Positions 1-16,696 of a DNA stretch of 64,000 bases are shown one piece after another. Origin of the DNA: a virus (Duplodnaviria > Caudoviricetes); the IMG/VR virus record IMGVR_UViG_3300032233_002382, positions 128,001 through 192,000 of that record; one strand, 5' to 3'. The first letter of the stretch is position 1; every line of letters starts with the position of its first letter. The notes below the pieces were generated by a model. That model saw only the letters and a list, made by a program, of their open reading frames with translations. It made no database searches and was not told the DNA's origin. The position numbers and the translations under genes were made by a program.

Positions 1-540
1 TGTGCCTCGAAGTATGAGGGTAGCACGGTTTCCAAGCCAGAGTTGTGCTGCAACAAGTTAGGTGATGCGGATCAGACTGTAGCTGCCATCATCATGACCT
101 ACCCGGTCAAGGATGGTATGCAGGTAGACGAAGAGCTTCTTGCAGCTCGTAAGTACGTGAATTTCTACATCTGGAAGATGAGCGCCAAGAAGTTCCGCAA
201 GGTCGAGGACGCCTACAAGGAAGCGCGAGGTGATGATAAGTACACCATCGACCTCCTGGTTACGCTGGATGGCGACCCGAAGTACCAGAAGCAGCAGATC
301 GCAGCTGGTTCGAACGCGGTGTGGGCCAAGGGTAAGCTCGATGCTGAGGCTCGTGCTTGGGTACTCGATCAGGGTCTTCGTAACTGGAAGCACGTCTCGA
401 ATAGCCTTGGCTTCGAGATGAAGATGGACAAGCTGGCGGAGAAGCTCGGAATGGGCGGTGCTTCTTCTGCTGCTTTGATGGGTGACTCTGGTGCGGAGAC
501 CCCAAAGCTCATTAGCTCGTACGACGATCTTATCAGCTAA
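1..540 (+). CDS. Probable single-stranded DNA-binding protein, 5' truncated by window edge
   Basis: Frame 1 is open from base 1 (CASKYEG...ELCCNKLG). Flexible tail ends SYDDLIS. Sits directly upstream of ruvC-recA and has strongly biased codons. Function inferred from context only. Confidence 0.45.
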   Translation, partial: CASKYEGSTVSKPELCCNKLGDADQTVAAIIMTYPVKDGMQVDEELLAARKYVNFYIWKMSAKKFRKVEDAYKEARGDDKYTIDLLVTLDGDPKYQKQQIAAGSNAVWAKGKLDAEARAWVLDQGLRNWKHVSNSLGFEMKMDKLAEKLGMGGASSAALMGDSGAETPKLISSYDDLIS

Positions 541-556
541 GTCTGGCTAATTCGGA

Positions 557-586
557 ATGTGGCCTGGTTTAACCGCCAGGCCACAT
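557..586 (+). terminator. Intergenic stem-loop (terminator or processing site), no U-tract
   Basis: ATGTGGCCTGG (557-567) / CCAGGCCACAT (576-586), perfect 11-bp stem. Confidence 0.55.
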
Positions 587-602
587 CTGTATTCGGAGTA
601 CT

Positions 603-1334
603 ATGCGCACACTTGGTCTTGATCCGAGCTTGTCCGCTTACGGGTGGGCTATCCATGATAGTGATGCCACCGGAATGCAAAGAAGGGTAGCTTCCGGTCA
701 TGAAGGAACGCTTCCTTCCGCCGTTCCGGTAGCAAGATTCATGCACTATAGAGCACTGGTGGAAAGGCTTCTTCTTGAATACCAGCCTGATGTAGTCGGC
801 ATTGAGTCTCCTGCATATGATGCAGGACCGTTTCAAACCATCCACTTCGGATTGATGATGTTTAGTATGGAGAGCATATTCAAGCGGCGTAAAGATTTAG
901 TGTTATTTGATCCAGCAACGCTTAAAGGGCTTGCTAGATTCGGTCTAAAAAACAAGATAGGGATGATATCGAAACAGGATATGCAGCGTTTTGTTCAGTT
1001 AGATACTTTGGATACAAACATTATCGACAATAATGAGGCCGATGCATACTGTGTGGCATATTTTTCTGCGAGGTTTATGGGCGTGATCAACGGTTCGATA
1101 AATCCTGAAGACCTGACCCAGTCAGAGTTGAACACTTTCCTACTTAGAAAGAAGAACGTGAAAACTGTAAGGGGTAAGAAAATCAAGATGGTATCACATG
1201 CATTTAGAGAGAATTCTAGGTATTTCCGGTTTAGTGCAGTGCCTGAGGGCGAAGTAAACTTACCTAACAAAGCGAGCGTAAATCCCGACCTGATCGAGTA
1301 TCTTGAGGCTTTAGAACCTAACATCAAGCTCTGA
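603..1334 (+). CDS. ruvC: RuvC-like Holliday junction resolvase
   Basis: LGLDPSL (Asp1), VVGIESP (Glu), NNEADAYCVA (C-terminal acidic pair); GGAG SD upstream. Confidence 0.85.
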   Translation: MRTLGLDPSLSAYGWAIHDSDATGMQRRVASGHEGTLPSAVPVARFMHYRALVERLLLEYQPDVVGIESPAYDAGPFQTIHFGLMMFSMESIFKRRKDLVLFDPATLKGLARFGLKNKIGMISKQDMQRFVQLDTLDTNIIDNNEADAYCVAYFSARFMGVINGSINPEDLTQSELNTFLLRKKNVKTVRGKKIKMVSHAFRENSRYFRFSAVPEGEVNLPNKASVNPDLIEYLEALEPNIKL

Positions 1335-1345
1335 CATTTATAAGT

Positions 1346-1352
1346 GTAAAAT
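1346..1352 (+). promoter_or_regulatory. Putative -10 promoter element for recA (GTAAAAT)
   Basis: AAGTG-TAAAAT, purine 6 nt downstream (A1358), then GGGAG SD. Confidence 0.55.
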
Positions 1353-1371
1353 ATTCTAGAGGGAGAACACA

Positions 1372-2700
1372 ATGGCCAAAGCTCAACCAGTCGCGAAGTT
1401 ACACCCTAAGCTTGCTAGATTTATGGCAGGAATGGAAAAGAAATCCGGCATTGATATGCAGGATATTGTTGTTACTCCATCGCTTAAGATGGAACATATT
1501 AACACGGGTTCGACAGTATTAAACATGCTTATTGGCGGCTCTCGGGTTGGAGACGGTTCCTTCCTGTGCCCAGGATATCCTAGAGGCAAAATTATCGAAA
1601 TCTACGGTCGTGAGTCGAGCGGCAAATCCACAATAGCGTTGATGGCGGCCGGTCAGGCTGTTGCATCTAACGGTGGAACTGGAAGCGTGCTTTATGTGGA
1701 TCTTGAGCACGCTGTTGTAGATGCGTATGCATTGAAGCTTGGCGTTGACTTTCGGCCTATAGAGCTTGGCGGTAACGGTCAAGCTATCCGCGTTGCACCC
1801 CACATCTTCGAAGAGACTGAGGCTCTTGTTAACGGGGCTGCCCTGAACGGAGTCGATCTGATCGTGGTTGACTCGGTTGCTGGTCTTGTGTCGCGACGTG
1901 AGGCCTCAAGAGATCTCACCAATGAGAAAGAAAAGCAGGGCGTCGCTGAAATCCCGCGCTTGATGAGCGCTTGGATGCCTAAGCTACAGGCCATTATTGC
2001 AAAGACAGGCACCACCGTTATATTCCTTAACCAGACTCGAGACAAAATCGGAGCTATGGGATATACGGAAGAAGCTCTGAAGAGCACCACTGGTGGTAAC
2101 GCGCTCAAATTCTGGGCCTCTCTACGCATGATGCTAAAGCCTAAGCAATCGGCGAAAGCGAAGGTGTTTAATCCGATCATTAAGGAGTATGAGGAAGTCC
2201 CCGTAGCTACCGACGTTGAAGTCAAAAACATAAAGAATAAGATTGATGCCCGCCAGGGACATACTGGTCTCATTACGATCCGTTATGGAGTCGGCATTGA
2301 TGAAATGCGGACGATGTTAAACGTGGCAGAAGCGTATAACATCGTGAAAATGAGCAAAAACGCTCGCAAGCAGGAGGTTTATACTTATAAATGTGCAGCT
2401 ACTGGTGATGTGATTGAAGCTATTGGGGTGGAGAAGTTCCGGGTTGCTATGCAGCGCAATTCTACTGCATTTGAAGAGATGATGAGCGCTTGCCGTGATC
2501 GTATCATTCAAGGATTCCGAGCTATTGACGACGAGCAGCTTGCCCAATTGGCTGAAGATGCGGTCACTAAGAAGATCGACGATGAAGATGAATATTTAGA
2601 CGACTCGTCTACTGCGTTGGTGAGTCCAAATGATATGGGACTTGACGATTCGGAAGAAGACTCCGATTCGAATGTCACTATTTCAGCCGACGACGTCTAA
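1372..2700 (+). CDS. recA: RecA-family recombinase with acidic C-terminal tail
   Basis: GYPRGKIIEIYGRESSGKST (Walker A), LIVVDSVA (Walker B), IFLNQTR, TTGGNALKF. Confidence 0.95.
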   Translation: MAKAQPVAKLHPKLARFMAGMEKKSGIDMQDIVVTPSLKMEHINTGSTVLNMLIGGSRVGDGSFLCPGYPRGKIIEIYGRESSGKSTIALMAAGQAVASNGGTGSVLYVDLEHAVVDAYALKLGVDFRPIELGGNGQAIRVAPHIFEETEALVNGAALNGVDLIVVDSVAGLVSRREASRDLTNEKEKQGVAEIPRLMSAWMPKLQAIIAKTGTTVIFLNQTRDKIGAMGYTEEALKSTTGGNALKFWASLRMMLKPKQSAKAKVFNPIIKEYEEVPVATDVEVKNIKNKIDARQGHTGLITIRYGVGIDEMRTMLNVAEAYNIVKMSKNARKQEVYTYKCAATGDVIEAIGVEKFRVAMQRNSTAFEEMMSACRDRIIQGFRAIDDEQLAQLAEDAVTKKIDDEDEYLDDSSTALVSPNDMGLDDSEEDSDSNVTISADDV

Positions 2701-2711
2701 GGAGGAAACCT

Positions 2712-4769
2712 ATGGAAAACGCTTACTGGTCTCTACCTGTTATAGGTCCGCTGCTTCGTTCGCTTAATGTACAAGACCGAGAAGGTCTAATGTCTCTAAA
2801 TATATCCGATCTCGTGACGCGCAATGGTGTGGGTCGCACCAAAATGATGGCGTTGGTTGACCTCATCAATGCCGAAAAGAAGCAAAAGGAAATCGCCGGA
2901 ATTTCGTCTGATCTATATACGCTGTGTAAACCCTACCTCCATCTACCTGCTAAGTCCTGTTTGGGAAGGCTGAACTCCCGGTTAGAATCTAAGATAGATG
3001 AATATAACCTTCATACTGTAGCTGATGTCATTCGTTGGATCGAAGCAGTGGATGTTAAAGATGAACTAAACTACGGCCATAAAACACATGAATGGGCTAA
3101 AACAAGACTCTCTGATCTGTCTCGGGTAGGTCCGAACGTGTTAGTATTCGGACAGAATACCAGTCCTCAAACCGCTGATGAATTCGTGGAGTTGTACTTC
3201 AAGAATATCGAGAATCCTGCTTATCTTTCGATATTTAAGGAGTATTTTGCAGATGACAAAACGCTGGATGAAATCGGAAAAACTCGGACTCCACCCGTTA
3301 CGCGCGAGAGAATTCGCCAGATTATGGACATTCAAGTCCGTAGAGATTCGGACGGATGGTCTCGAGTCGCAGCTGACATACTAGATGTCCTTACCAGAAA
3401 GCTCGATGCTCAAAACGGCGTAGTGACGGAGTCTGCAGCTTTAAGTCTTACTGGTGCGAAGTACACTTGGCAAATCGATTTGCTGTCAAAGATTGCTGGA
3501 AGAGAGTTACACTTCCCCCGTGGTCGGCGCGAGGGAATTGTGTGTATTTATAAATCAGATGAACTATCGGATCTATGTAGTGAACTTGGCGAAGCGATCG
3601 ATTCGATACTTGAAGAATCGAATGTGCTAGTCAATCTACAGGAAAAGCTCAAGGATTATGGATTCGAATATGGGGATGAATTTAAGAACATCCTTCCCAT
3701 CCTTGCGAACGTAGAAATTAATGGAGATAGAGTATATGATAGTCGTAAGAAGATAAACACTTCTTACGTTGAGACATTAAGATCATTCGGACGACCTGCG
3801 ACCGCGAGAGAAATCACGGAAAAGCTGTCGGAATCTGATTCTAGTATATCTAACAGGCTCCATACTACGATTACTCAGCTTCGTCGGTCGTCTGAAGTAT
3901 TTAAGACGGATGACCACAAGTTCGTCCACGAAGAACACCTCGGTTTCAGCGTTAAACAGCTTAAAGCACTTGCAGTGGAAGCCTGCAAGCTTGTACCTCG
4001 AAATGGTTCTGCTGTAAACGTACGCCGGTTACTTAAAGAGCTAAGCGCTAGTAACCAGATTCCTGCTTCTCTGAGCCCTTTTACCTTGCGTGATGCCATG
4101 ATGTTGGTTGGAGATGTTAGGAGCTGGAGAGCTGGTTGTGATGTCGCTTGGATCTGTGAGAATACTCATCGGCTTACAATCCCCGAGTACTTTGATGAGA
4201 TAGCGCCAACATTGGATCAGCCGTTTTCGATGAAGGATCTCGTAGACTCGGTTTGTAAGATCAGCGGCTATTTGCCTGAATCTGTTAAAATGCAGTTTCA
4301 TTCAAATGAGTCTACTGTTCATATTGGTTACAATCTCTACGTAGCAAGGTCGGCGATTGAACCGGACTCCGCAAAATTCGACCAGTTGGTCAACGTTGCC
4401 GCGTCGCACGTGCCTGCTGTCGGTGTCGTAACGGGTCATGAGTTAGCAGCGTCTTGTAAAGAGCTTAAGTTATTAGCTAAAAAGCATGGTCCTGGTTTAA
4501 TATGGGGTCTTGCTAAACTTCACAAGAATATCGTGGCACGTTCACGTGGGCTTTTGCTTTACTCAGCGGCACACCCCAATCTGTGGAGCGCCTTTAAATC
4601 CGACCCACGCTGGAAGCTGCCGTCGACTTTCACAAGTGACGATCTGAGAAAGTGTATCATAGGCGAATTCAAGATAAATACCTACAGCTATTCTTATTAT
4701 CTGTTAAAGGACGCAATGTCTACTAAGGAAGTATCACTTAATCATGCAGACATGTACACGTCAGCGTAA
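2712..4769 (+). CDS. Multidomain protein: two RNAP alpha-CTD-like HhH domains, sigma70 region-4 HTH and winged-helix-like segments
   Basis: LRSLNVQDREGLMSLNISDLVTRNGVGRTK and LNSRLESKIDEYNLHTVADV...NYGHKT resemble alphaCTD; TLDEIGK...VTRERIRQI is the sigma4 motif; PATAREITEKL is wHTH-like. Confidence 0.6.
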   Translation: MENAYWSLPVIGPLLRSLNVQDREGLMSLNISDLVTRNGVGRTKMMALVDLINAEKKQKEIAGISSDLYTLCKPYLHLPAKSCLGRLNSRLESKIDEYNLHTVADVIRWIEAVDVKDELNYGHKTHEWAKTRLSDLSRVGPNVLVFGQNTSPQTADEFVELYFKNIENPAYLSIFKEYFADDKTLDEIGKTRTPPVTRERIRQIMDIQVRRDSDGWSRVAADILDVLTRKLDAQNGVVTESAALSLTGAKYTWQIDLLSKIAGRELHFPRGRREGIVCIYKSDELSDLCSELGEAIDSILEESNVLVNLQEKLKDYGFEYGDEFKNILPILANVEINGDRVYDSRKKINTSYVETLRSFGRPATAREITEKLSESDSSISNRLHTTITQLRRSSEVFKTDDHKFVHEEHLGFSVKQLKALAVEACKLVPRNGSAVNVRRLLKELSASNQIPASLSPFTLRDAMMLVGDVRSWRAGCDVAWICENTHRLTIPEYFDEIAPTLDQPFSMKDLVDSVCKISGYLPESVKMQFHSNESTVHIGYNLYVARSAIEPDSAKFDQLVNVAASHVPAVGVVTGHELAASCKELKLLAKKHGPGLIWGLAKLHKNIVARSRGLLLYSAAHPNLWSAFKSDPRWKLPSTFTSDDLRKCIIGEFKINTYSYSYYLLKDAMSTKEVSLNHADMYTSA

Positions 4770-4803
4770 TGTGTAATCCCATTCGTTTATCGACGGGTGA
4801 CTC

Positions 4804-6072
4804 ATGAATCCTATTAAAGTTCAGATCCGTAACTTTCAAAGCATTGAGTCGATAGATTTCGAAATAAACGGGTTTACCTGCTTAGTAGGTAAGACAAATG
4901 TAGGCAAAAGCGCGATAGTGCGTGCTATCACTTCTGCCATACTCAATAATCCTGTGGTCGGAATGGTCAGGCACGATCGACCCCATGCATCTGTTCGACT
5001 CACATCAGACCATTATGATATTTTATGGGAAAAGGCTGAACGCGGTTTAAACCGCTATCATGTCAATGGGAAGATGTACGACAAAGTAGGAGGCAACCAA
5101 CTTAAGGAAATTGAAGACCTGGGCTTCAAATCCGTTAAAGTGGGAAGTGATGAAATACTCCCTTGGTATGCATCACAATTCTTTCCAATATTTCTGCTCG
5201 ATCGAACAGGTCCGCAGGTAACCGATTTTATATCGGATATTTCTCGACTAAATGTGATTCAGGATGCCATTGTACTGTCTAACAGGAGAAAGAAACGCAA
5301 GAATGACATTATTGGTCTGAAAGAAAAAGATCATTCAGAAGATTCTGCTAAACTGAAGAGGATCGTTTCGCTTGACGCGCTTTTGTTAATAGGCCAGGAT
5401 TTACAAGATCAGAAACAATCGATAGAATCATATGAGAGTTCAGTTCTTTCAGCATCACGTTTGCAAGAGCTGATTGCTGATGCTTCATCTTTATTGTCGA
5501 ATATCTCCGCTGTAGAAACAGTATCATTACCAGATGTTGATACTATTGACATCGAGCTTTATGCCAAAGCTTCGGACTTGTATACAGATCTGCAAAGCAA
5601 TGCTAAATCGATCAGTGTGATCAAACAGATATCTAAAATACCAATATCTGAAGAACCGATTGAATTTAAAGAATATGCGAAGATAAGATCATTACCTGAC
5701 ATATCCGATTTAGCTAATAAAGTGTCACAGCTCGAGTCGATTAACGCGGTGTCGATAATCGACCAAGATCTTTCTGATCATATTGATAAGCTCAAGTCGG
5801 CTGAATCAGTACATCAAAGCATTAATAAAAACAGGTCCTTCGTGGGCGGGATAAGCGAGATAGAATTCCCAATAAGCTCTGTACTGGATGAGTACTTGAA
5901 TTACCGATCCCTGGTTCAGCTCGCAAGTCATATGTCGACTATTGCCAAGGAAGCGCGATCAGACAAGATCAAAATAGCAGACATGGAAAACGAGCTTAAG
6001 GTCGTTGAGGCTGACTTGTCTTCGATACCAACCTGCAGTACTTGTAAGCAACCAGTTCAGCACGAGCACTAA
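4804..6072 (+). CDS. SbcC/Rad50/gp46-like ATPase, N-terminal half ending at the zinc hook
   Basis: IRNFQSI...LVGKTNVGKSAIVRA (Walker A), coiled coil, terminal CSTC; no ABC signature or Walker B. Confidence 0.8.
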   Translation: MNPIKVQIRNFQSIESIDFEINGFTCLVGKTNVGKSAIVRAITSAILNNPVVGMVRHDRPHASVRLTSDHYDILWEKAERGLNRYHVNGKMYDKVGGNQLKEIEDLGFKSVKVGSDEILPWYASQFFPIFLLDRTGPQVTDFISDISRLNVIQDAIVLSNRRKKRKNDIIGLKEKDHSEDSAKLKRIVSLDALLLIGQDLQDQKQSIESYESSVLSASRLQELIADASSLLSNISAVETVSLPDVDTIDIELYAKASDLYTDLQSNAKSISVIKQISKIPISEEPIEFKEYAKIRSLPDISDLANKVSQLESINAVSIIDQDLSDHIDKLKSAESVHQSINKNRSFVGGISEIEFPISSVLDEYLNYRSLVQLASHMSTIAKEARSDKIKIADMENELKVVEADLSSIPTCSTCKQPVQHEH

Positions 6073-6563
6073 CCTAAATGAACTCCGCACATTCTTCTGA
6101 GGTCATCCAGATGCTGAGTGTCTGTAAGGGCGATATTCTCACCTAGCACTCTCAAAGCCGTGTTGTCTCCCGATATTTCACAAAGCTGGCGCGCTTTAGC
6201 AATTAGCTCCAACTCCATATCTACTAGACATTTACATAGAGACGGTAAATCTGAAGCACAATTTAGAGAGACATTCGTTATATTTGGATCCACGCCCATT
6301 CCCATTAATTTCATCGCTAAATCGTATGCGTGTTCTCTTTCCTCTTCTGCATGCTCTTGCCAGTGATCCACTAAAGCGTCTCTCCATGGACCTGTAACTC
6401 GATCTGCAAAGCTTCTATATGCAATATCAATTTTGTACTTACACACCAAAAGGTCCATTATTGTGTTTGATACGATATTACTGTCAGCGCCGTACGCGCC
6501 TTCCAACTCTATAGTCAAAGCGATTTTCTTTGATATATCATTTAGGTTGGCCATACCATACAT
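6069..6563 (-). CDS. Ferritin-like (Bfr/DPSL-type) four-helix protein
   Basis: EEEREHAYDLA...GMG, MELE and DTQHLDD align with di-iron helix motifs. Confidence 0.75.
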   Translation of the reverse strand: MYGMANLNDISKKIALTIELEGAYGADSNIVSNTIMDLLVCKYKIDIAYRSFADRVTGPWRDALVDHWQEHAEEEREHAYDLAMKLMGMGVDPNITNVSLNCASDLPSLCKCLVDMELELIAKARQLCEISGDNTALRVLGENIALTDTQHLDDLRRMCGVHLG

Positions 6564-6577
6564 GTCTTATTAGAACC

Positions 6578-6584
6578 GTAGAGT
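6578..6584 (+). promoter_or_regulatory. Putative -10 element (GTAGAGT), leaderless start at 6590
   Basis: TAnnnT-N5-ATG, no SD; overlapped by GTACTCT on the minus strand. Confidence 0.55.
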
Positions 6585-6589
6585 ACGAT

Positions 6590-6883
6590 ATGAAACAGTT
6601 TAATTCCAAATATTTAGCTCAATACCCGTGGTTAATCTTACTAACATGTGAGTCCGTGGATTTAGAATCGGACATTAAAATAGCTGATTATAAGGATACA
6701 GAAGCTCTCTATCATCCGAAATATGACAGATTTATAGGATATTCATCTTCTGGCATTCTACTTTTCGGAAAAAAACCGATCATACTGAATGATGGTATAT
6801 ACTACATTGAGCACGACACCGATACTACGAAATTAGCAAAGGATGTGTCGCCCCTCCAGTGCATTCTAAGAACTATATCATAG
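6590..6883 (+). CDS. Hypothetical protein
   Basis: ORF track; ATG 6590 preferred because TTG 6530 overlaps the divergent gene. Confidence 0.6.
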   Translation: MKQFNSKYLAQYPWLILLTCESVDLESDIKIADYKDTEALYHPKYDRFIGYSSSGILLFGKKPIILNDGIYYIEHDTDTTKLAKDVSPLQCILRTIS

Positions 6884-7291
6884 ATTCTCTAAGCCTACTC
6901 GTTTCACGACATCAGATAATGTCTCCCCAGCAGTCCTTGATTTGTTGATCCGACTCACCAACTCGTCCAAAGGAATCATCACTACGCTGGCTGCATTCCG
7001 AACCAGGCTAAGACTTCGCTTAGTGTCAACTATATTTTCGGACGCGAGTTTTAAAATATTGTTGAACAGTTGTGTGCGGTACTTCTCTTCATCAGTTCTC
7101 CTGAACCTCACAATCTTACCGCTCTCGACCCCAAACCACCGGTCTTCTTGAAGTTCGAAACTCCGCTCATGACAATTGTCGGATACGGATTCGGGGGAAC
7201 GTAGGAATAAAACGCTTTTATCCTCTGTGATTGCCCAGGTAGGAATGTAATATTCGAATTCCGATTTCTGGTAAGCAGTAATTTTATACAT
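6878..7291 (-). CDS. Hypothetical protein
   Basis: ORF coupled to neighbours by short overlaps. Confidence 0.6.
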   Translation of the reverse strand: MYKITAYQKSEFEYYIPTWAITEDKSVLFLRSPESVSDNCHERSFELQEDRWFGVESGKIVRFRRTDEEKYRTQLFNNILKLASENIVDTKRSLSLVRNAASVVMIPLDELVSRINKSRTAGETLSDVVKRVGLENL

Positions 7292-7604
7292 GTTTAATAA
7301 TCTCTTTGATGATCACTGCAATGCAGGCGCACATGAATCCGGTAAATGCAAGCGTGATTAGTCCCGCCGCAAATATCATTATACCAAAGCTGAATTTAAG
7401 AAATCGATCCGCGAATGTGGGTTCATATAAGTATTTGTTCTGTTGCGCGTCGTACACCGACTGTTGATCAATAATCTCAGGCTCTTGCACCCTGTAGAAG
7501 TTATTCTGAACCGGAGCCGCAAACACCGGACGTGCATTACACTCTTCACACGCCTTAAAATTCGTAACACCTCCACACATCATACAATACATACCGTTAC
7601 TCAT
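7284..7604 (-). CDS. Hypothetical membrane protein with N-terminal Zn ribbon
   Basis: CMMC-x7-CEEC and a hydrophobic C-terminal segment (FSFGIMIFAAGLITLAFTGFMCACIAVII). Confidence 0.6.
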   Translation of the reverse strand: MSNGMYCMMCGGVTNFKACEECNARPVFAAPVQNNFYRVQEPEIIDQQSVYDAQQNKYLYEPTFADRFLKFSFGIMIFAAGLITLAFTGFMCACIAVIIKEIIKHV

Positions 7605-8142
7605 TGGAACCCCCTAAATGCTGGCAGCAGTATTTAATGGCACTCGATGTGTCTGAACCTTCAGGGACAGTCGGCAATACGCTATCGATCGAAGATTTCC
7701 GAAATCCTAAATTCCGCAAAATATGCTGAACAGCATCTAAGTTACACCGTATCACATCAGAGCGATTCTCTATCATAGGCGTTACGGATTTGCTGTGGAC
7801 TTCTGAGAATCCTAAAAGCGACTGAAATTCAGATAGATCATTAGCATTGAATTCGTTCGCCTCATGTCTGTTGTACGTTAACTGATCTCGATCGGGCGAT
7901 ACAATATCATGTAAGAATTCGAATATCGGTATTTCCAGTAGGTCAAATGAATGGTGTTCGGAGTTCCGATCAAACCATGCTATACACTTGCAGTACTCTG
8001 AGACATCCCTACCCTGGTCTAAGATATAATCGATTCTCGACTGGTCATACCGGTCTTCTGGACAGATCTTCACGAGTCTACATGAACCGCTAGGGGAGAC
8101 GAAAGAGAAAATGTACGTCTTAAGCAGGGGATTCATACCCAC
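7597..8142 (-). CDS. Hypothetical protein with RuvA C-terminal-domain-like tail
   Basis: DAVQHILRNLGFRKSSIDSVL...TSSAIKYCCQHL resembles RuvA domain III. Confidence 0.45.
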   Translation of the reverse strand: MGMNPLLKTYIFSFVSPSGSCRLVKICPEDRYDQSRIDYILDQGRDVSEYCKCIAWFDRNSEHHSFDLLEIPIFEFLHDIVSPDRDQLTYNRHEANEFNANDLSEFQSLLGFSEVHSKSVTPMIENRSDVIRCNLDAVQHILRNLGFRKSSIDSVLPTVPEGSDTSSAIKYCCQHLGGSNE

Positions 8143-8170
8143 AGAACAATTACATTCAGGAATTTCCGCC

Positions 8171-8785
8171 CTATAATGTGGTTAAAATTGATAATAGAAT
8201 TTGAGTATATCCTACTATTACGTTTATATCCTGCGGCGCATCAAACCCGTCTACAATCGCATACTGAGACGGATATGGGATGTGAACAAACAATGGTTTT
8301 GCTTTAATAAAGCCTTCGTAATATGCAGATAGCATTTCGTAATATAAGCTATTACAGGTGTGAGTACCAGCATGGTAGCTTATCGACGAAGGAATCGACT
8401 GAGATTGTAAGGAAGCCTGGATGTCTGCGACGTTTACCGGAGTTACAAAAGCCGGAGGCGCGTTTGGTCTAATTGTTCTATTATATACTGGGATTTTAGT
8501 ATTATCACCGATCGCTGAATCCTCAATGTTAAGAGCGAATTTCTCGAGTTTAAGACCTCGAGCTCTTTCGCTGGCTCCAAACATAATGAGGTATTCAGGG
8601 TTAAATGATTTTGTCGCCCTAATTAGCATCTGGGCGTTTTGACGGAAAATTTGAGGCAGAATTATAGCTTGTAATTCGACGTCCGTTTGCTTTATTTCGT
8701 TCGAAACAAATGTGGACACCAAGTCACCACTTGGTGTCCGCTTCAGATTGTAAATTGGCTCGAATCCGCTGATAAGTATTTTCAT
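8171..8785 (-). CDS. pcp: Pyroglutamyl-peptidase I (peptidase C15)
   Basis: ILISGFEP, LEKFALN (Glu), AGTHTCN (Cys), FVHIPY (His); ATG 8785 preferred. Confidence 0.88.
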   Translation of the reverse strand: MKILISGFEPIYNLKRTPSGDLVSTFVSNEIKQTDVELQAIILPQIFRQNAQMLIRATKSFNPEYLIMFGASERARGLKLEKFALNIEDSAIGDNTKIPVYNRTIRPNAPPAFVTPVNVADIQASLQSQSIPSSISYHAGTHTCNSLYYEMLSAYYEGFIKAKPLFVHIPYPSQYAIVDGFDAPQDINVIVGYTQILLSILTTL

Positions 8786-8802
8786 ATCGGGTCCAATCAA
8801 GT

Positions 8803-8809
8803 GTATACT
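8803..8809 (+). promoter_or_regulatory. Putative -10 element (GTATACT) for the HD-MazG-guaB-guaA operon
   Basis: AAGTG-TATACT; predicted +1 is A8815, the first base of the AGGAGA SD. Confidence 0.6.
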
Positions 8810-8824
8810 CCTGCAGGAGAAAAA

Positions 8825-9454
8825 ATGGCTAACAGCTGGGACGAATTTTTAGGGTGCATTCAGGGCGACATTCGCAGATTAGACTCCGTGATTCGTTATA
8901 ACAGTATACCGGTGTTACAAAGGGAGTCTGTGGCGACTCACACCTTTTGGGTTACACTATATGCGATTTTGATTCACAGACACATTCATAAGGGTGGCAC
9001 CGCGTCTCATGTGGAGCAGGAAATAATGCTAGCAGCGTTGACTCACGATTTGGCTGAATGTGTTACTGGTGATGTTGTTAGAACATTTAAGTACTCGAAT
9101 CCGGAGTTAAAGAGGTGTATTGACGAATCCGAGGATATGATGGTCGTTAGATATTTTCCGGAAGCTCTAAAGTCGATCATGAGGGACAGTGATCGAATCT
9201 ATTCATCGAGTAGCGGACAGTATGTGAAGTCGATTATTAAAGCAGCAGACTTCACGTCCTTGTTTATGTTTATGAATCGAGAATGGATCAGGGGGAACCG
9301 TGAGATAACGCCCTTCATCAAACGAATGGTCCGTGATTTAGAAGCGTTTGCGTATGTAGATGAATCGGCTGAGTGGTACGATAAAGAATTAAGCCACCTC
9401 TATCATTTAATGTCCGAGCAAGCTCTGTGCGTACCCCCTAACCGCGAAGTGTAA
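8825..9454 (+). CDS. HD-domain nucleotidase (YfbR/DatZ-like)
   Basis: IRYNS...ESVATH, LTHDLAECVTGDV, IKAAD, GNRE; AGGAGA SD before ATG 8825. Confidence 0.85.
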   Translation: MANSWDEFLGCIQGDIRRLDSVIRYNSIPVLQRESVATHTFWVTLYAILIHRHIHKGGTASHVEQEIMLAALTHDLAECVTGDVVRTFKYSNPELKRCIDESEDMMVVRYFPEALKSIMRDSDRIYSSSSGQYVKSIIKAADFTSLFMFMNREWIRGNREITPFIKRMVRDLEAFAYVDESAEWYDKELSHLYHLMSEQALCVPPNREV

Positions 9455-9462
9455 AACCCATC

Positions 9463-9963
9463 ATGCTTATCGAAGAGAGAAACGTCGTCCAAGCACGAGT
9501 TGACGAACTTGATCGCCTTATGAACCAGATACCTGATGGAGGGTTACCAGAGACCGTTCGTTCGTATCTGTTAGCGAGGAAAAAGGAGCTCGAGGATCTG
9601 GGGGTTCAGTCGCAGGATCCCATCCTCACCTCGGTGATACGGTCGCATAAAGCGATATGTGCGGCAAAAAACATGGAAGAGAAGGCCGCGTATGGTCAAG
9701 ATCCGGCGGTTTATTACTCTCTAGGCATTTGTGGTGAAGCTGGAGAACTGGCCAACAACGTAGTTAAGAGTCTCCGGAATGGATGGGATCGTGTCCGTAT
9801 ATTAGAAGCCGTTAAAGGCGAGTTGCCTGACGTAATCATATATTCTTACATTCTGGCCTATGTACTAGATATAGATCTCACTAAATTAGTAAACGAGAAA
9901 GTCGAGATCGTTATTAAACGAGCGAACGCCGGGTACTACGGCGGTGAGATAGGTAAATCATGA
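9463..9963 (+). CDS. MazG-like nucleotide pyrophosphohydrolase with N-terminal helical extension
   Basis: LGICGEAGELAN...GELPDVIIY...LDIDL...NEK. Confidence 0.8.
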   Translation: MLIEERNVVQARVDELDRLMNQIPDGGLPETVRSYLLARKKELEDLGVQSQDPILTSVIRSHKAICAAKNMEEKAAYGQDPAVYYSLGICGEAGELANNVVKSLRNGWDRVRILEAVKGELPDVIIYSYILAYVLDIDLTKLVNEKVEIVIKRANAGYYGGEIGKS

Positions 9964-11027
9964 GGCTCGGATTGACGTTTGATGATGTGCTCTTGGTACC
10001 TCAGCACAGTGCAGTTCTTCCGAGTGGTGTCGATGTTTCGACGAAGTTTAGTCGGAACATCGACATGTCCATACCTATTTCTTCGAGCGCTATGGACACA
10101 GTTACCGAATCTGCGATGGCGGCAGCCCTAGGACAACTAGGCGGTGTGGGCGTAATTCACAAAAATAACTCGATTGACGAACAAGTATCACTTGTGCAGA
10201 CTGTTAAGCTTTACGATCCTTCGCTAACGATCTGTGCTGCGGTAGGAGTGAGTGATGATTGGAGGAAGCGTACCGAGTCGCTTATTAAGGCTGGTATAAA
10301 AGGAATAGTCTTAGATTCTGCTCATGGTCATTCGGAGAATGTGCTGGTAGTTGCCAAGACAATTAAGCGAGACTATTCGGAAGTCGATGTGATCGTCGGA
10401 AACGTAGCGACTGCTTCGGCAGCTCAAGCACTCTGTGACATCGGGATAGATGCGATCAAGGTCGGGATCGGTCCCGGATCGATATGTACTACTAGGATCG
10501 TCGCGGGAGTTGGAGTACCTCAACTAACCGCTATTCTGGATGTGGTACCGGTAGCAGATCGTTATGATATTCCGGTTATAGCAGACGGTGGCATAAAGCA
10601 TTCAGGCGACATCGTTAAAGCTTTAGCCGCAGGAGCCGATTCCGTAATGATTGGAAGCCTCTTAGCGGCAACCGATCAGTCTCCAGGTGCTGAGTTCGAA
10701 TCCGATGGGATCCGGTACAAGTCATATCGGGGAATGGGATCTGAAGCGGCGATGTCCAAGGGATCTAAAGACCGATATTTCCAGTCTGAGTCTACAAAGT
10801 TCGTACCTGAAGGTGTTGAAGGGGCGGTTCCACTTAAAGGCGCTACAAAAGACGTGATATTCCAGTTGGTCGGAGGTCTCAGAAGCGGGATGGGCTATTG
10901 TGGCGCAAAGAATCTAGCCTCGCTTCGTTCGAATGCCGAGTTCATTCAAATCACGACCGCTGGACTATCTGAGTCTCACGTTCACGGTCTTAGTTCATTT
11001 AAGAAATCGTTAAACTACGGAATTTAA
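9960..11027 (+). CDS. guaB: IMP dehydrogenase lacking the CBS pair
   Basis: [47 protein letters not shown] (catalytic Cys), IADGGI, YRGMGS, VPEGVEG; 355 aa. Confidence 0.97.
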
Positions 11028-12551
11028 ATGCAAAAGATTCTAATAGTAGACTTTGGCTCACAATACACCCAGTTGATTGCTAGGCGGATCAGGTCTTTCA
11101 ACGTGTTTTGTGAAATTGTGTCGTGTAAAACTGATTTAACGCCACATTTGACCAAAGATACTCGAGGAGTGATTCTTTCTGGCGGACCTGCAAGCGTCAA
11201 CGATCCAGGCGCACCTCAGCTCGATATGCGATTGCTAGAAATTGGTGTGCCGGTTCTAGGTATATGCTACGGATTTCAGCTCCTGGCTAAGTCTCTAGGA
11301 GGTGAAGTATCCAAATCCGATTCGCGAGAATATGGCTTATCTTATTTGATTCCGGATGAAGAGTATTATCTTAAGTCTGATGCGGATTCTCAGGTCTGGA
11401 TGTCTCATGGAGATAAAGTAACCAAGCTTCCTAATGGCTGGGTTCGAATTGCTTCTACAAGCACTTGCGAATTCGCGGTTGCCGAAGATATTAGTGGACT
11501 TATTTGTGGAATTCAGTTTCATCCAGAAGTGACTCATACACCTGACGGGTCTAGAATCCTTAAGGAATTCGTGCGTTCTTGCCGAATTTCGAGCGAATGG
11601 ACGAGCCAATCATTCATCGATAAGGCGGTTGAAGACATTAAAATCACTGTTGGATCTGATAACGTGATTTGCGCTTTGTCCGGTGGAGTCGATAGTGCAG
11701 TTACGGCAGCTCTTATATATAAAGCCATAGGAAGCCAGCTTACTTGTGTGTTTGTAGATAACGGTCTTATGCGACATAATGAAAGACATGATATAGAAGG
11801 CACATTTTCTTCAATGTTCGGAGGTTCCTTTCATTGCACCGATGCGGGTTTAGAATTCCTGCACGCCCTGCAAGGTGTGTCTGATCCGGAGCAAAAAAGA
11901 AAAATCATCGGACATAAATTCATAGAAGTATTCGATAGATTTGTTGCTGAATCCTCCATCGAATATAAGTTTTTAGCCCAGGGCACTTTATATCCAGATG
12001 TCATCGAAAGTACCAGCGCCAATGGGCCTAGCGCAGTAATCAAGAGTCATCATAATGTGGGAGGACTGCCAGAAGGCATTAAATTTTCGCTATTAGAGCC
12101 GCTGCGCTATCTATTTAAGGATGAAGTTCGTGAAGTAGGTCGGTCACTTGGCATAGATTCGAAAATTATTGATCGACAGCCTTTTCCAGGACCAGGATTG
12201 GCGATCCGCATATCAGGAGCCGTCGATGAGCTTAAGCTAAGTATTCTTCGCAGGGCAGACCTGATTGTTCGTGAGGAAGCGGCTAAGAGAGGACTCGACA
12301 AAACGACTTGGCAATGTTTTGCGGCTCTTCTGCCGATTCGCACGGTCGGCGTAATGGGCGACGGTCGGACTTACGATTATATGGCTTGTTTGCGAGTTGT
12401 AAACAGCGAGGATGGAATGACGGCCAGCGTGCCGTGGCCGATTGAATTCCTCGAACAAACCAGTTCGAGGATTGTTAACGAGGTCAAAGGAATAAATCGA
12501 GTAGTTTACGACATTACGACAAAGCCGCCATCTACCATCGAACTCGAGTGA
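11028..12551 (+). CDS. guaA: GMP synthase (glutamine-hydrolysing)
   Basis: DFGSQYTQLIARR, LGICYGFQ, QFHPEV, LSGGVDS, QGTLYPDVIES, IKSHHNVGGLP, PFPGPGL, KPPSTIELE. Confidence 0.97.
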   Translation: MQKILIVDFGSQYTQLIARRIRSFNVFCEIVSCKTDLTPHLTKDTRGVILSGGPASVNDPGAPQLDMRLLEIGVPVLGICYGFQLLAKSLGGEVSKSDSREYGLSYLIPDEEYYLKSDADSQVWMSHGDKVTKLPNGWVRIASTSTCEFAVAEDISGLICGIQFHPEVTHTPDGSRILKEFVRSCRISSEWTSQSFIDKAVEDIKITVGSDNVICALSGGVDSAVTAALIYKAIGSQLTCVFVDNGLMRHNERHDIEGTFSSMFGGSFHCTDAGLEFLHALQGVSDPEQKRKIIGHKFIEVFDRFVAESSIEYKFLAQGTLYPDVIESTSANGPSAVIKSHHNVGGLPEGIKFSLLEPLRYLFKDEVREVGRSLGIDSKIIDRQPFPGPGLAIRISGAVDELKLSILRRADLIVREEAAKRGLDKTTWQCFAALLPIRTVGVMGDGRTYDYMACLRVVNSEDGMTASVPWPIEFLEQTSSRIVNEVKGINRVVYDITTKPPSTIELE

Positions 12552-12881
12552 TTAAAACCCACCATTCAGGTTTCCACGAAAGAGCTTGTAGAAGGGCAGC
12601 GTGTTTTTAGGATTATTTATTACGTTGTATGGTCTTTGGTCTTGCTGTATTTGCGACTGGACTAGAGGGATTTCCAGAGCCATCCGTCGTAAGCATTCAT
12701 CAGTAGTGACTCTTAAAAGATCATTTTTAGCATGCGGATTTCTTTGGAGAATGAATGTCACCTGATCGTAGGTGAGTTGGTCTAGTCTACACTTTCCTTG
12801 TATAAACCACATATTGTTCGAACAGTCACCATCACATAATGATTTAGATGCATCTGGATTGCAGTTATCGTCCATGTTCAT
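12552..12881 (-). CDS. Hypothetical protein
   Basis: ORF with AGGAG SD. Confidence 0.55.
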   Translation of the reverse strand: MNMDDNCNPDASKSLCDGDCSNNMWFIQGKCRLDQLTYDQVTFILQRNPHAKNDLLRVTTDECLRRMALEIPLVQSQIQQDQRPYNVINNPKNTLPFYKLFRGNLNGGF

Positions 12882-12890
12882 CTGAGACTC

Positions 12891-13646
12891 CTAAATTCTA
12901 GTTGTGACTACACAGTTTTCATTGAATCGTAGACCATTTCGATGTACTTGCCAATCCTTACTAATGATCGAAGATCCACCGCATCCGAAGTCGAGAGTGT
13001 ATCCTGAGTTGTCTTCCACACCATAGTTATTCGCTATCGCTAGTGTGCAGTCGTTACGTTTGCAGAAATCCATCCAGTTGTTCGGAGGAAATCCTGATTT
13101 GCCCCAATTCGCACATGCCAACACGATGTCAGGTTTCGAGGTCGAAAAAATAGGATTATTTCCTAAGTGTGGTGGAGATTTCGATCTAATGTCGCGGCAA
13201 ATCAGCAGGGACACCTTTCCGTGCGGCGTTTTTATGATTCCGGGCTCTTCTTCTCCCACGCTTGCCCAAAGGAAATCGTTAGCCCACAAGTTCCGTTTCT
13301 GATAAGTAGATACTAAGTCCCCATTCGGATCGATTAGATTAGCAGCATTATATAGCGAATCATCGCGTCGTTCCATGAATCCATATGCTATGTAACAGGA
13401 GAGCTCCTGGGCGAACCTCGACATTTTGTTAAACGTAGGACCATCACAAGGCTCGCATAGAGTATTTACGACGCTTGAGTCTACGTGAGCATAGCCACTA
13501 AAACATAGTTCGGGCAAAACTATGATTTCGCTACCTAATTCTCCGGCCTGATATATCAAAGAGGAAGCTTTTCTTAAATTATCTGATATATCGGCTGCGC
13601 AAGATGCTAGACGCGGTTTATACTGTATTACTGATATTATGCTCAT
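12891..13646 (-). CDS. Carbon-nitrogen hydrolase (nitrilase-family amidohydrolase)
   Basis: VLPELCFSGY (Glu), YQKRNL (Lys), LICRDI (Cys) catalytic triad. Confidence 0.88.
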   Translation of the reverse strand: MSIISVIQYKPRLASCAADISDNLRKASSLIYQAGELGSEIIVLPELCFSGYAHVDSSVVNTLCEPCDGPTFNKMSRFAQELSCYIAYGFMERRDDSLYNAANLIDPNGDLVSTYQKRNLWANDFLWASVGEEEPGIIKTPHGKVSLLICRDIRSKSPPHLGNNPIFSTSKPDIVLACANWGKSGFPPNNWMDFCKRNDCTLAIANNYGVEDNSGYTLDFGCGGSSIISKDWQVHRNGLRFNENCVVTTRI

Positions 13647-13957
13647 TTTTCTATCTCAATATGAACGGAGTTTGCAGCTTTCTCAGCTGCTTCGTCGATT
13701 TTCTTCTGTATTCCGATCTTAAATGACATTGTATGCTTTTCGATCATATCCACACTAGCGCTGACGCTCTTGAATGCTTCAGCATCTCCGCCTCTATCCG
13801 GATGATGCTTAGCCATAAGTGCTTTGGCCTTCTTTTTAGCCTCTAACATAATTGCGTCGGCTGCAGACAACTTTTCTTTTCGAGTCATAACAGATAACTT
13901 AAGGAATATTACTCCAGGATCCATACCAATATTTCGAAAAGCGTCGTGAATGTTCAT
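13643..13957 (-). CDS. Small J-domain protein
   Basis: KALMAKHHPDRGGDAEAFK (HPD motif). Confidence 0.75.
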   Translation of the reverse strand: MNIHDAFRNIGMDPGVIFLKLSVMTRKEKLSAADAIMLEAKKKAKALMAKHHPDRGGDAEAFKSVSASVDMIEKHTMSFKIGIQKKIDEAAEKAANSVHIEIEK

Positions 13958-14136
13958 AAATTTAACCCACGAAGAGATTTCGCTCCCTTACTTTTACGTT
14001 TTACTAACTGTTTATCTAGAAAAGATAACAAATCTGATATTTTATCGGGTTCGTAACCATGTAGCTTTTTGTAGTCCTGGATGCACTCAAGAAGCTTGGT
14101 ATGCAACTCATCGTAGGTCATATTTCACATTACTCG

Positions 14137-14143
14137 GTACTGT
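14137..14143 (+). promoter_or_regulatory. Putative -10 element (GTACTGT), leaderless start at 14149
   Basis: TAnnnT-N5-ATG, no SD. Confidence 0.5.
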
Positions 14144-14148
14144 TGTGC

Positions 14149-14328
14149 ATGAAGAAGCCAATTTCACCGAACTGGAATGAACTGTTCAAGTATGCCGTGA
14201 CTGAAGCAGAGAAGAAATCTCTGAATAAAATGGTAGCGGTCTTAAAGAACAATGAGGGCCGTAAAGAGTATATATGCAGAAAATTAGGTATTATATCAAT
14301 AAATGACGTACGCCGAATGATAAAATGA
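14149..14328 (+). CDS. Small hypothetical protein
   Basis: Part of ORF 14101-14328; internal ATG matches the promoter spacing. Confidence 0.45.
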   Translation: MKKPISPNWNELFKYAVTEAEKKSLNKMVAVLKNNEGRKEYICRKLGIISINDVRRMIK

Positions 14329-15808: not shown

Positions 15809-16068
15809 CAGGACCTTGCCTTTTTTGTGACAAGCCTTCGCCATTGCGTGTAAAAGCGAATACCGTAGAGAATAATAGAGACTTGCATGTGTGCGATATG
15901 CACTGGAAGATACTTCAAAATCCGCACACAGCTTTACCTTTTTTGCGTGGCGTAAGCATGATGCAGCTACAAAGAGACGAAATAAAATATGACGGAACCG
16001 TTAAGAAGCTAGTTGAAGGGTATTTTGATAGTATCGCTAAGTGGAAAAAGCAAAATCCGAAGAATTAG
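15805..16068 (+). CDS. Small Zn-finger-like hypothetical protein
   Basis: CLFC ... CDMH; ATGA overlap with the upstream gene. Confidence 0.55.
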   Translation: MTGPCLFCDKPSPLRVKANTVENNRDLHVCDMHWKILQNPHTALPFLRGVSMMQLQRDEIKYDGTVKKLVEGYFDSIAKWKKQNPKN

Positions 16069-16696
16069 AAACAACACCATTTATTTTATGGCGTATTTCT
16101 CGTATGTGCTTGTTCGTGATGGTCTTCCCGCCGTAAGATAAAGCTAGGCGGATAACCTCAACGTTCGCTCCGGTGCGAGCAGCTCTAATGAATTTTGCGC
16201 AGTCATACATCTTCTTTTGTCGGCATATTTCTTCAAGTTCAAGAACGCTTTCACTTTCCACAAAATTGCTCGATGGTTCCATCTCGGCTGTCTCTACGAG
16301 CGGTCGTTCTTCATCATTCATTGGTTCATAAATGCTGTCTTTTTCCTTGTCGTACCTTCTCTTTTTGTGAACAAGGTTTATACACACGTTGTTCGCGACC
16401 ATGTAAACATAGTGACCGAAACTCGACTTGCGCGGATCATGGGCGCTTTTCGTGTAATTCTTGTGAAGGATCGCTGCATAAACCTCCTGGAGCAGTTCTT
16501 CCATAGGAATACCTTCAACACTAAAAAATTTGTGTACTAGCTTAATGATATCCTGACGCTTCTTTAGAACGTCGATTCCCAGATCCACTTTGTCATTATC
16601 AACAGCTTTACGTGGCCATGGATACTTTGTGGGAGCTTTTTTGAGTTCTTTTTCGGTCCGAATATAAGCAATCGCTGGCTGGTCGGCTGCGCTCAT
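16037..16696 (-). CDS. Sigma70-family (ECF-like) RNA polymerase sigma factor
   Basis: EELLQEVYAAIL...HDPRKSSFGHYVYMVANNVCINLVHKKRR (region 2); GAGGG SD. Confidence 0.72.
   Translation of the reverse strand: MSAADQPAIAYIRTEKELKKAPTKYPWPRKAVDNDKVDLGIDVLKKRQDIIKLVHKFFSVEGIPMEELLQEVYAAILHKNYTKSAHDPRKSSFGHYVYMVANNVCINLVHKKRRYDKEKDSIYEPMNDEERPLVETAEMEPSSNFVESESVLELEEICRQKKMYDCAKFIRAARTGANVEVIRLALSYGGKTITNKHIREIRHKINGVVSNSSDFAFST

Follow-up and report, generated by a model that had tools for sequence, protein, structure and literature searches.

The stretch analysed here, termed the window, comprises 64,000 nucleotides (nt) of a giant phage and corresponds to bases 128,001-192,000 of the 307,777-bp IMG/VR record IMGVR_UViG_3300032233_002382, which is estimated to be 72% complete. 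Gene X (P0001; 2712..4769, + strand) was delineated from the open reading frame and an alignment of homologues. It encodes a non-enzymatic protein of 685 amino acids (aa) with multiple helix-turn-helix (HTH) units and is located between the gene of a RecA/UvsX-like recombinase and that of an SbcC-like ATPase. The protein, also called X, consists of a helix-hairpin-helix (HhH) unit, a domain of the type found at the C-terminus of the RNA polymerase (RNAP) alpha subunit (alphaCTD), a sigma-70 region 4 domain (sigma 4), and seven winged-helix (WH) domains. A Shine-Dalgarno sequence, GGAGG (2701..2705, +), lies directly after the recA stop codon TAA (2698-2700) and about 6-7 nt before the ATG. Residues L8, P9, and G12 of X are invariant, and homologues align from residue 1. 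Because of this alignment and the placement of GGAGG, the start at position 2712 is right, and not that of the shorter 659-aa form found in the protein database.

The first module is an HhH/SAM-like unit (aa ~8-62; 2733..2897, +), which was assigned from the helices of the structure model, a Z score of 5.5 to a SAM domain in the VIA fold search, and its alignment to longer bacterial forms of the protein. Model residues 1-62 match SAM/HhH-like folds only in the VIA search. In the long bacterial forms, its counterpart in the alignment is the first alphaCTD-like unit, which matches rpoA models. The second module is the alphaCTD-type HhH domain (aa ~80-146; 2949..3149, +), identified by profile comparison with the PDB and by fold match. 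When a 16-sequence profile of aa 72-156 is searched against the PDB, RNAP alpha subunits occupy the top 29 matches (E = 1.1e-8), and the HhH domains of Pol X and DNA ligase rank behind them. Model residues 64-138 superpose on the alphaCTD of Bacillus subtilis, Escherichia coli, and Helicobacter pylori with Z scores of 6.1-6.2 and 19-22% identity. In the alignment with the B. subtilis domain, residues R90, N120, G122, K124, and T125 of X occupy the positions of its R and its N-x-G-R/K-K-S/T motif, and are taken here to correspond to the DNA-contact residues of alphaCTD. Thus, of the two N-terminal alphaCTD-like units proposed in a preliminary description made from the sequence alone, the second holds, while the first can be assigned only as HhH/SAM-like. 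A RuvA-like role of the HhH units was considered and rejected, as RNAP alpha ranks first and no RuvA is among the matches listed.

The third module is the sigma-70 region 4 domain (aa ~155-233; 3174..3410, +), recognised by Pfam, the family profile, and fold match. It includes the HTH TLDEIG...VTRERIRQI (aa 184-205; 3261..3326, +), which had already been pointed out from the sequence and lies where it had been placed. The Pfam model Sigma70_r4 scores 27.5 bits in X (cut-off 24.1) and matches two stretches. A four-sequence profile of the family yielded weak PDB matches only, whereas a 67-sequence profile matches region 4 of RpoD/SigA at E = 1.5e-12, spanning regions 4.1 and 4.2, and the B. subtilis alphaCTD at E = 4e-9. 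In the fold search, sigma domain 4 structures were matched by model residues 151-222, with Z scores of 5.2-6.2, a root-mean-square deviation of 1.7-3.0, and up to 31% identity. The recognition helix VTRERIRQI is identical to the helix in solved primary-sigma SigA/RpoD chains, and its positions are presumably those that contact the -35 hexamer in sigma-70. The full-length model of X has a predicted local distance difference test (pLDDT) score of 71 and is good for residues 1-460. Although the Z values of the N-terminal fold matches are middling, the matches extend over entire domains and are in line with the sequence statistics.

Both RNAP-type modules, the RNAP alpha C-terminal domain (PF03118) and sigma-70 region 4 (PF04545), are therefore represented in X by significant profile and fold matches; unlike RNAP, X fuses them in one chain. 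No match to Sigma70_r2 or Sigma70_r3 was obtained in X with Pfam at E<=1, and neither RNA_pol_A_bac nor RNA_pol_L was matched by Pfam, the N-terminus being occupied by the additional HhH unit; HhH and WH domains take up the rest of the chain. As it has neither an alpha N-terminal domain nor sigma regions 2 and 3, X is neither an RNAP subunit nor a sigma factor. A search of the phage genome for sigma region 2 found two genes, and X was not among them. Across 67 family members, R90, G122, G140, P152, R198, and Q203 are near-invariant; R90 and G122 sit in the alphaCTD unit, and R198 and Q203 in the sigma 4 helix.

The remainder of the protein is composed of winged helices. Three units (aa ~237-406; 3420..3929, +) were assigned from the model, Pfam, and fold matches. 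The third of them (aa 344-406) resembles HARE-HTH and is where the second, weaker Sigma70_r4 match falls, and model residues 345-411 match winged helices in the VIA search. HARE-HTH (PF05066) itself has no Pfam match in X; the equivalent winged helix of the family member at the Myxococcota locus L033 reaches 23.4 bits, below the cut-off of 25.9, and the domain occurs in 12% of Atlas cluster members. Four tandem WH domains follow (aa 411-685; 3942..4766, +), as seen in the structure model and fold searches. Modelling of aa 397-685 from a 57-sequence alignment gave a pLDDT of 96.3 and a predicted template-modelling score of 0.87, with four consecutive helix-helix-helix-hairpin units. The best single-domain matches to this region are the winged helices of SAMD1, the cullin WHB domain, and the C-terminus of MCM (Z scores of 7.7-8.4). 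The nearest tandem arrays are those of UFL1, the C-terminus of SelB, and the AlkX/YcaQ glycosylase (Foldseek E values of 2e-3 to 1e-2), but TM-scores are low (0.18-0.33), so that a common building block is indicated and no functional relation is implied. The best conserved parts of X are the alphaCTD, sigma 4, and above all WH-d (aa 411-484), with its RSWRAGCDVAW wing; WH-b, WH-f, and WH-g are the most variable domains. The further winged-helix segments suspected from the sequence are thus borne out, as is the lack of a recognisable catalytic domain, since no catalytic fold was found in X by Pfam, PHROGs, PADLOC, Foldseek, and VIA searches. A C-terminal nuclease, which the preliminary description had named as the case that would speak against it, did not turn up in Pfam, PHROGs, and PADLOC or in Foldseek and VIA searches with the model of pLDDT 96, where absence from a list is not exclusion; four winged helices are found there instead.

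This composition suggests that X has no catalytic activity and binds to duplex DNA at multiple points. Every domain is of a nucleic-acid-binding type, and the near-invariant residues include those in the DNA-binding segments of the alphaCTD and sigma 4. A different use of the same modules, the main one proposed in the preliminary description, would be mimicry of the RNAP surface, with X as a decoy that draws off host activators, anti-sigma factors, or further RNAP-binding proteins. The alphaCTD and sigma 4 of X are true homologues of the RNAP modules, and the HARE-HTH-like unit, at a sub-threshold level, recalls the delta subunit of RNAP. However, conservation is concentrated in the DNA-binding segments, about 450 of the 685 residues form generic WH domains, and the relatives are tied to DNA-processing enzymes. 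As R90, G122, R198, and Q203 are conserved in DNA-binding segments, DNA binding fits better than protein mimicry, which is the least probable of the explanations considered here.

X belongs to a bacterial family for which an exhaustive profile search retrieved 214 representatives (50% clustering, E<=1e-3), 45 of them below 1e-30. The members P0006, P0007, and P0008 align collinearly over 86-99% of X, and many members bear an N-terminal extension of 370-430 aa. For this extension, there was no Pfam match in the copy at the Myxococcota locus L002 and no Atlas match, and only sigma appeared among the PDB matches listed. Atlas clusters with the same Pfam pair are found in Bacillota, Bacteroidota, Pseudomonadota, and Planctomycetota, and 19 of 401 sampled Myxococcota genomes have a family match. 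Labels in databases are automatic, such as "RNAP alpha C-terminal domain-containing protein" or "sigma factor-like HTH DNA-binding protein". No paper describing a stand-alone alphaCTD-sigma 4-multi-WH family was found in a literature search. The expectation that similar fusions occur in poorly characterised accessory regions of bacteria is in keeping with this uncharacterised family. Viral copies of X were found neither in PHROGs nor among GenBank phages (tblastn) nor in a BFVD fold search, and pattern scans of IMG/VR with the family alignment gave no further copies.

Some family members are fused to other enzymes, namely Eco57I-type methylases (P0059, P0069) and an FtsK/SpoIIIE ATPase (P0081). 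Others are encoded in operons. L002, on the Myxococcales contig JAJZQG010000227.1 from a metagenome-assembled genome (positions 2-14283), encodes a 745-aa protein, the family member (1103 aa), a UvrD-like helicase with a ParE-like N-terminus, a DruE1-like helicase of 2029 aa (PADLOC E = 0), and a PD-(D/E)XK nuclease. DruA-D had no PADLOC matches in this operon, which is a non-canonical Druantia-like one. The PADLOC Druantia models match neither X nor the L002 family member, only the neighbouring DruE1. At L034 (Myxococcota genome G360; 2860-9827, - strand), a family member of 921 aa is followed by PglZ and BrxL with overlapping stop and start codons, and the contig ends just upstream of the family member. 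This arrangement suggests a BREX-type system that uses the family member as a component. L025 is a type I restriction-modification locus with HsdS, HsdR, a YgjP-like peptidase, and then the family member, and L030 combines an Eco57I/MmeI-type methylase, an AAA_15 ATPase, the family member, an AAA ATPase, and a subtilase. Judged by these fusions and gene contexts, family members look like the component that reads or targets DNA in machinery for defence and DNA translocation.

Among the described systems closest to X is PglW of BREX type 2 (Pgl). A comparative study from 2026 (PMC12839542) reports an alphaCTD-like domain followed by three winged HTH modules in PglW and reads this part as the sensory, DNA-binding half of the protein. 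X resembles this C-terminal half in combining an alphaCTD-like domain with several winged HTH modules, and the HhH and sigma 4 part of the fusion P0059 aligns with positions 810-982 of the NCBIfam PglW model (E = 3.5e-7). Unlike PglW, X has no NERD nuclease, kinases, or iSTAND part (no Pfam match to NERD or kinase domains) and is a stand-alone protein of a phage. It also differs in its second HhH unit, its true sigma region 4, and its seven instead of three WH domains. No match to the PglW model was found in the phage genome. The same study describes the BrxA and DUF4007 tri-(w)HTH "scanning units" of BREX, which are enzyme-free strings of HTH or winged HTH domains inside defence operons. By this description only, they are similar to X in build, and a family member is located directly upstream of PglZ and BrxL; unlike them, X is far larger and has RNAP-derived modules. 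MzaA of the MZA anti-phage system (NF041931, sigma-70 family) shares the sigma 4 HTH with the family of X at weak E values of 1e-4 to 3e-3. X is not a member of MzaA, as the matches cover sigma 4 only, fall far below the 800-bit cut-off, and lie C-terminally in MzaA.

By BLAST, the closest relatives of X are P0006 (45% identity) and P0007 (34%), followed by the forms of about 1100 aa, P0008, P0009, and that of L002 (31-33%). In a quick, unrooted IQ-TREE phylogeny with branch support from the Shimodaira-Hasegawa-like approximate likelihood ratio test (SH-aLRT), the short forms of ~680-704 aa (P0001, P0006, P0007, P0014, P0015, P0019) constitute one clade with a support of 98. This clade is sister (SH-aLRT 99) to that of L002, P0008-P0010, and P0011. 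Two of the short forms are demonstrably phage-borne. X lacks the N-terminal extension of ~370-430 aa that is present in its nearest bacterial homologues. Neither the extension nor the remaining L002 operon proteins have a BLAST-level homologue in the phage genome, and on this ground the idea of a split gene was rejected. The sequence relationships agree with a single capture from a Myxococcota-like lineage, or an exchange with it, and rapid divergence thereafter; as the tree is unrooted, a transfer from bacterium to phage is the probable direction only.

In the phage, X is preceded by genes for a RuvC-like resolvase (603..1334, +; phrog_159, E = 2e-16) and, immediately upstream, the RecA/UvsX-like recombinase (1372..2700, +; Pfam RecA, E = 1e-43). 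The SbcC-like ATPase of 422 aa (4804..6072, +; phrog_77, AAA_23) is encoded immediately downstream. The intervals are 11 nt between recA and X and 34 nt between X and the sbcC-like gene, and consensus scans around X for promoter-like and terminator-like sites gave no excess over shuffled sequence. A related 51.9-kb metagenome contig, L037, encodes a RuvC-like protein, RecA, the X homologue P0007, and an SbcC-like protein, with guaB/guaA farther along (pattern scan). In three IMG/VR relatives that were found via RecA, no gene separates recA from the sbcC-like gene (RecA identity to the phage: 80% in L063 and L064, 68% in L065). No X homologue was detected by the family profile anywhere in L063, L064, or L065, which include a complete 393-kb genome bearing terminal repeats. 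As positive controls, the profile found its targets in the control genome G001 and matches X itself in the phage. The view that the gene was inserted between recA and sbcC is upheld by these junctions. Between the two carriers, the phage and L037, RecA is 87% identical, the RuvC-like protein 53%, the SbcC-like protein 41%, and X 34%. Since X is missing in relatives and is only 34% identical where RecA is 87% identical, it is a lineage-specific, fast-diverging accessory gene. Despite this divergence, X has stayed intact from end to end, and each of its domains has invariant residues.

The SbcC-like gene encodes an N-terminal ATPase head and a coiled coil and ends a few residues past the CxxC zinc-hook motif. 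Its product is of similar length, ~417-435 aa, in four relatives, and the C-terminal head may be encoded by a separate gene. Metallophos genes, possible SbcD genes, are distant from it, at 32703-33338 and 292377-292961 of the whole phage record (G000:C1).

This position raises the question of a recombination or repair adaptor, in which X would tether or target the RecA/UvsX-like, SbcC-like, or RuvC-like proteins to DNA sites or ends. The gene begins 11 nt after recA with a strong Shine-Dalgarno sequence and ends 34 nt short of the sbcC-like gene, no convincing promoter or terminator separates it from these neighbours, and L037 retains the order RuvC-RecA-X-SbcC-like. The L002 relative is likewise flanked by helicase and nuclease genes, and the family member of L030 lies two genes past an ATPase of the families AAA_15/AAA_23, which are also matched by the SbcC-like neighbour of X. 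However, relatives with 68-80% identical RecA join recA to the sbcC-like gene and are devoid of X anywhere. As these relatives, including the complete 393-kb genome, have the recA-sbcC-like pair alone, the recombination module works without X. Moreover, X diverges much faster than RecA (34% versus 87%). An adaptor of this kind is thus rather unlikely.

The preferred reading, put forward tentatively and from sequence comparison, is that X derives from a captured DNA-reading subunit, has lost the N-terminal part, and disturbs those host systems that employ the same module. The phage copy would have been acquired from the branch that includes the Myxococcales proteins of the Druantia-like helicase-nuclease operon. 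Produced together with the phage recombination genes, X would bind the same DNA features or partner enzymes as the full-length protein of the host, without passing the signal on, and would thereby act as a dominant-negative or competitive anti-defence factor. An accessory, fast-evolving gene whose product lacks the N-terminal domain of its nearest bacterial relatives has traits typical of arms-race cargo. These traits, together with the defence contexts of the relatives, are the reason for ranking an anti-defence role first. Druantia-type helicase-nucleases are described in preprint abstracts as acting on replication or recombination intermediates that contain single-stranded DNA. For the co-expression of X with recombination genes, this description provides a rationale and not evidence.

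Several observations weigh against an anti-defence role. Located within a recombination operon, X could just as well serve in recombination. In Myxococcota, the close homologue at L023 stands alone among unrelated genes. An orthologue of about 800 aa, 70-81% identical among L026, L032, L033, and L035, is inherited vertically in syntenic, housekeeping-like, non-defence surroundings, and because of this subgroup the family is not exclusively one of defence. A 173-aa gene downstream of the ~800-aa orthologue is kept in L032, L033, and L035 and encodes a Metallophos_2 phosphoesterase in L033; the sigma 4 helix of the orthologue is degenerate and reads VSFQAIQARF, with TRERxRQ changed to SFQAIQA. 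Lastly, L002 is the one close long-form homologue whose operon entered the comparison.

The defence contexts of the family would also fit a phage-borne defence or superinfection-exclusion sensor. X would then be a DNA-scanning subunit directed against competing phages or host DNA, possibly together with the adjacent SMC-like ATPase. X is accessory and fast-evolving, and the phage encodes a diverged gene of the adenylosuccinate synthetase family. If the phage genome carries 2-aminoadenine instead of adenine, which would alter the minor groove that alphaCTD reads, minor-groove reading of the alphaCTD type could conceivably separate own from foreign DNA. However, X came with no effector gene, as the sbcC-like gene beside it also occurs in relatives without X, and X has no PADLOC match. 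Such a sensor appears very unlikely.

If the preferred reading of X as a truncated, interfering DNA reader is true, the promoter-contact modules of RNAP were copied into a separate and widespread class of DNA-reading subunits. These subunits would be used in systems of the Druantia-like, BREX-like, and restriction type, and a giant phage would have taken an effector-less copy. The family would then offer a candidate for how Druantia type I and BREX choose their DNA, which is an open point, and X would be a candidate for a new type of phage counter-defence protein. The family comprises hundreds of members, all annotated as hypothetical, and the binding specificity of X would inform many loci. 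If X is an ordinary DNA-binding accessory protein, the result is a useful annotation and no more.

The composition of the genome bears on what X might recognise. TTGACA occurs 13 times in the window, where 35.8 +/- 5.7 copies are expected. Genome-wide, 74 copies of TTGACA/TGTCAA contrast with 162 expected from dinucleotides, an observed-to-expected ratio (O/E) of 0.46, which makes it the 14th most depleted of 2078 hexamer classes. Most of the one-mismatch neighbours tested have ratios of ~0.9-1.0, and TATAAT has a ratio of 1.00. The depletion is also found in related megaphages (L037, L063, L065), with or without X. As it is equally strong in relatives without X, it is a feature of the clade and not evidence for the specificity of X, and a link between X and TTGACA avoidance was rejected.

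These data are relevant to a role of X as a promoter-element binder, which takes up the upstream promoter contacts suggested in the preliminary description and in which the alphaCTD-sigma 4 tandem would bind an UP-proximal A-tract and a -35-like hexamer without RNAP, and would either occlude host sigma-70 promoters or regulate phage genes. The two modules are adjacent in X in the order that they occupy on a promoter. The recognition helix VTRERIRQI is intact as in primary-sigma chains, and X keeps the conserved R and the N-x-G-R/K-K-S motif of alphaCTD. In addition, the phage has its own sigma factors, and TTGACA is specifically avoided in the phage clade (O/E 0.46). However, this avoidance is equally strong in relatives without X, many relatives of X are not stand-alone regulators but form subunits of, or are fused to, methylases, translocases, and helicase-nuclease systems, and the conserved myxobacterial orthologues have lost the TRERxRQ helix. 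A promoter-element binder in this sense is therefore doubtful.

A more far-reaching variant regards the alphaCTD and sigma 4 cassette as a free-standing reader of promoter-upstream DNA, with which defence systems and the phage alike would find or mask promoter-like DNA without RNAP. Host DNA would be bound and the phage's own TTGACA-poor, possibly 2-aminoadenine-containing, DNA hardly at all, and this discrimination between self and non-self would serve host shut-off or counter-defence. This proposal is speculative and improbable.

Apart from X, at least one small sigma factor of the phage is complete, with regions 2 and 4, and a second, weak region 2 protein is encoded at 16037-16696 of the window (-). 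There are more sigma 4-bearing phage proteins, one of them with two copies of region 4. The other sigma-related loci are located at G000:C1:33618-34172 (+), G000:C1:283472-283810, and G000:C1:306161-306304. The hexamer CCCGGG is nearly absent from the phage genome (2 versus 97). Finally, a diverged gene of the adenylosuccinate synthetase family is present at G000:C1:3891-5033 (-), with a Pfam E value of 3e-16.

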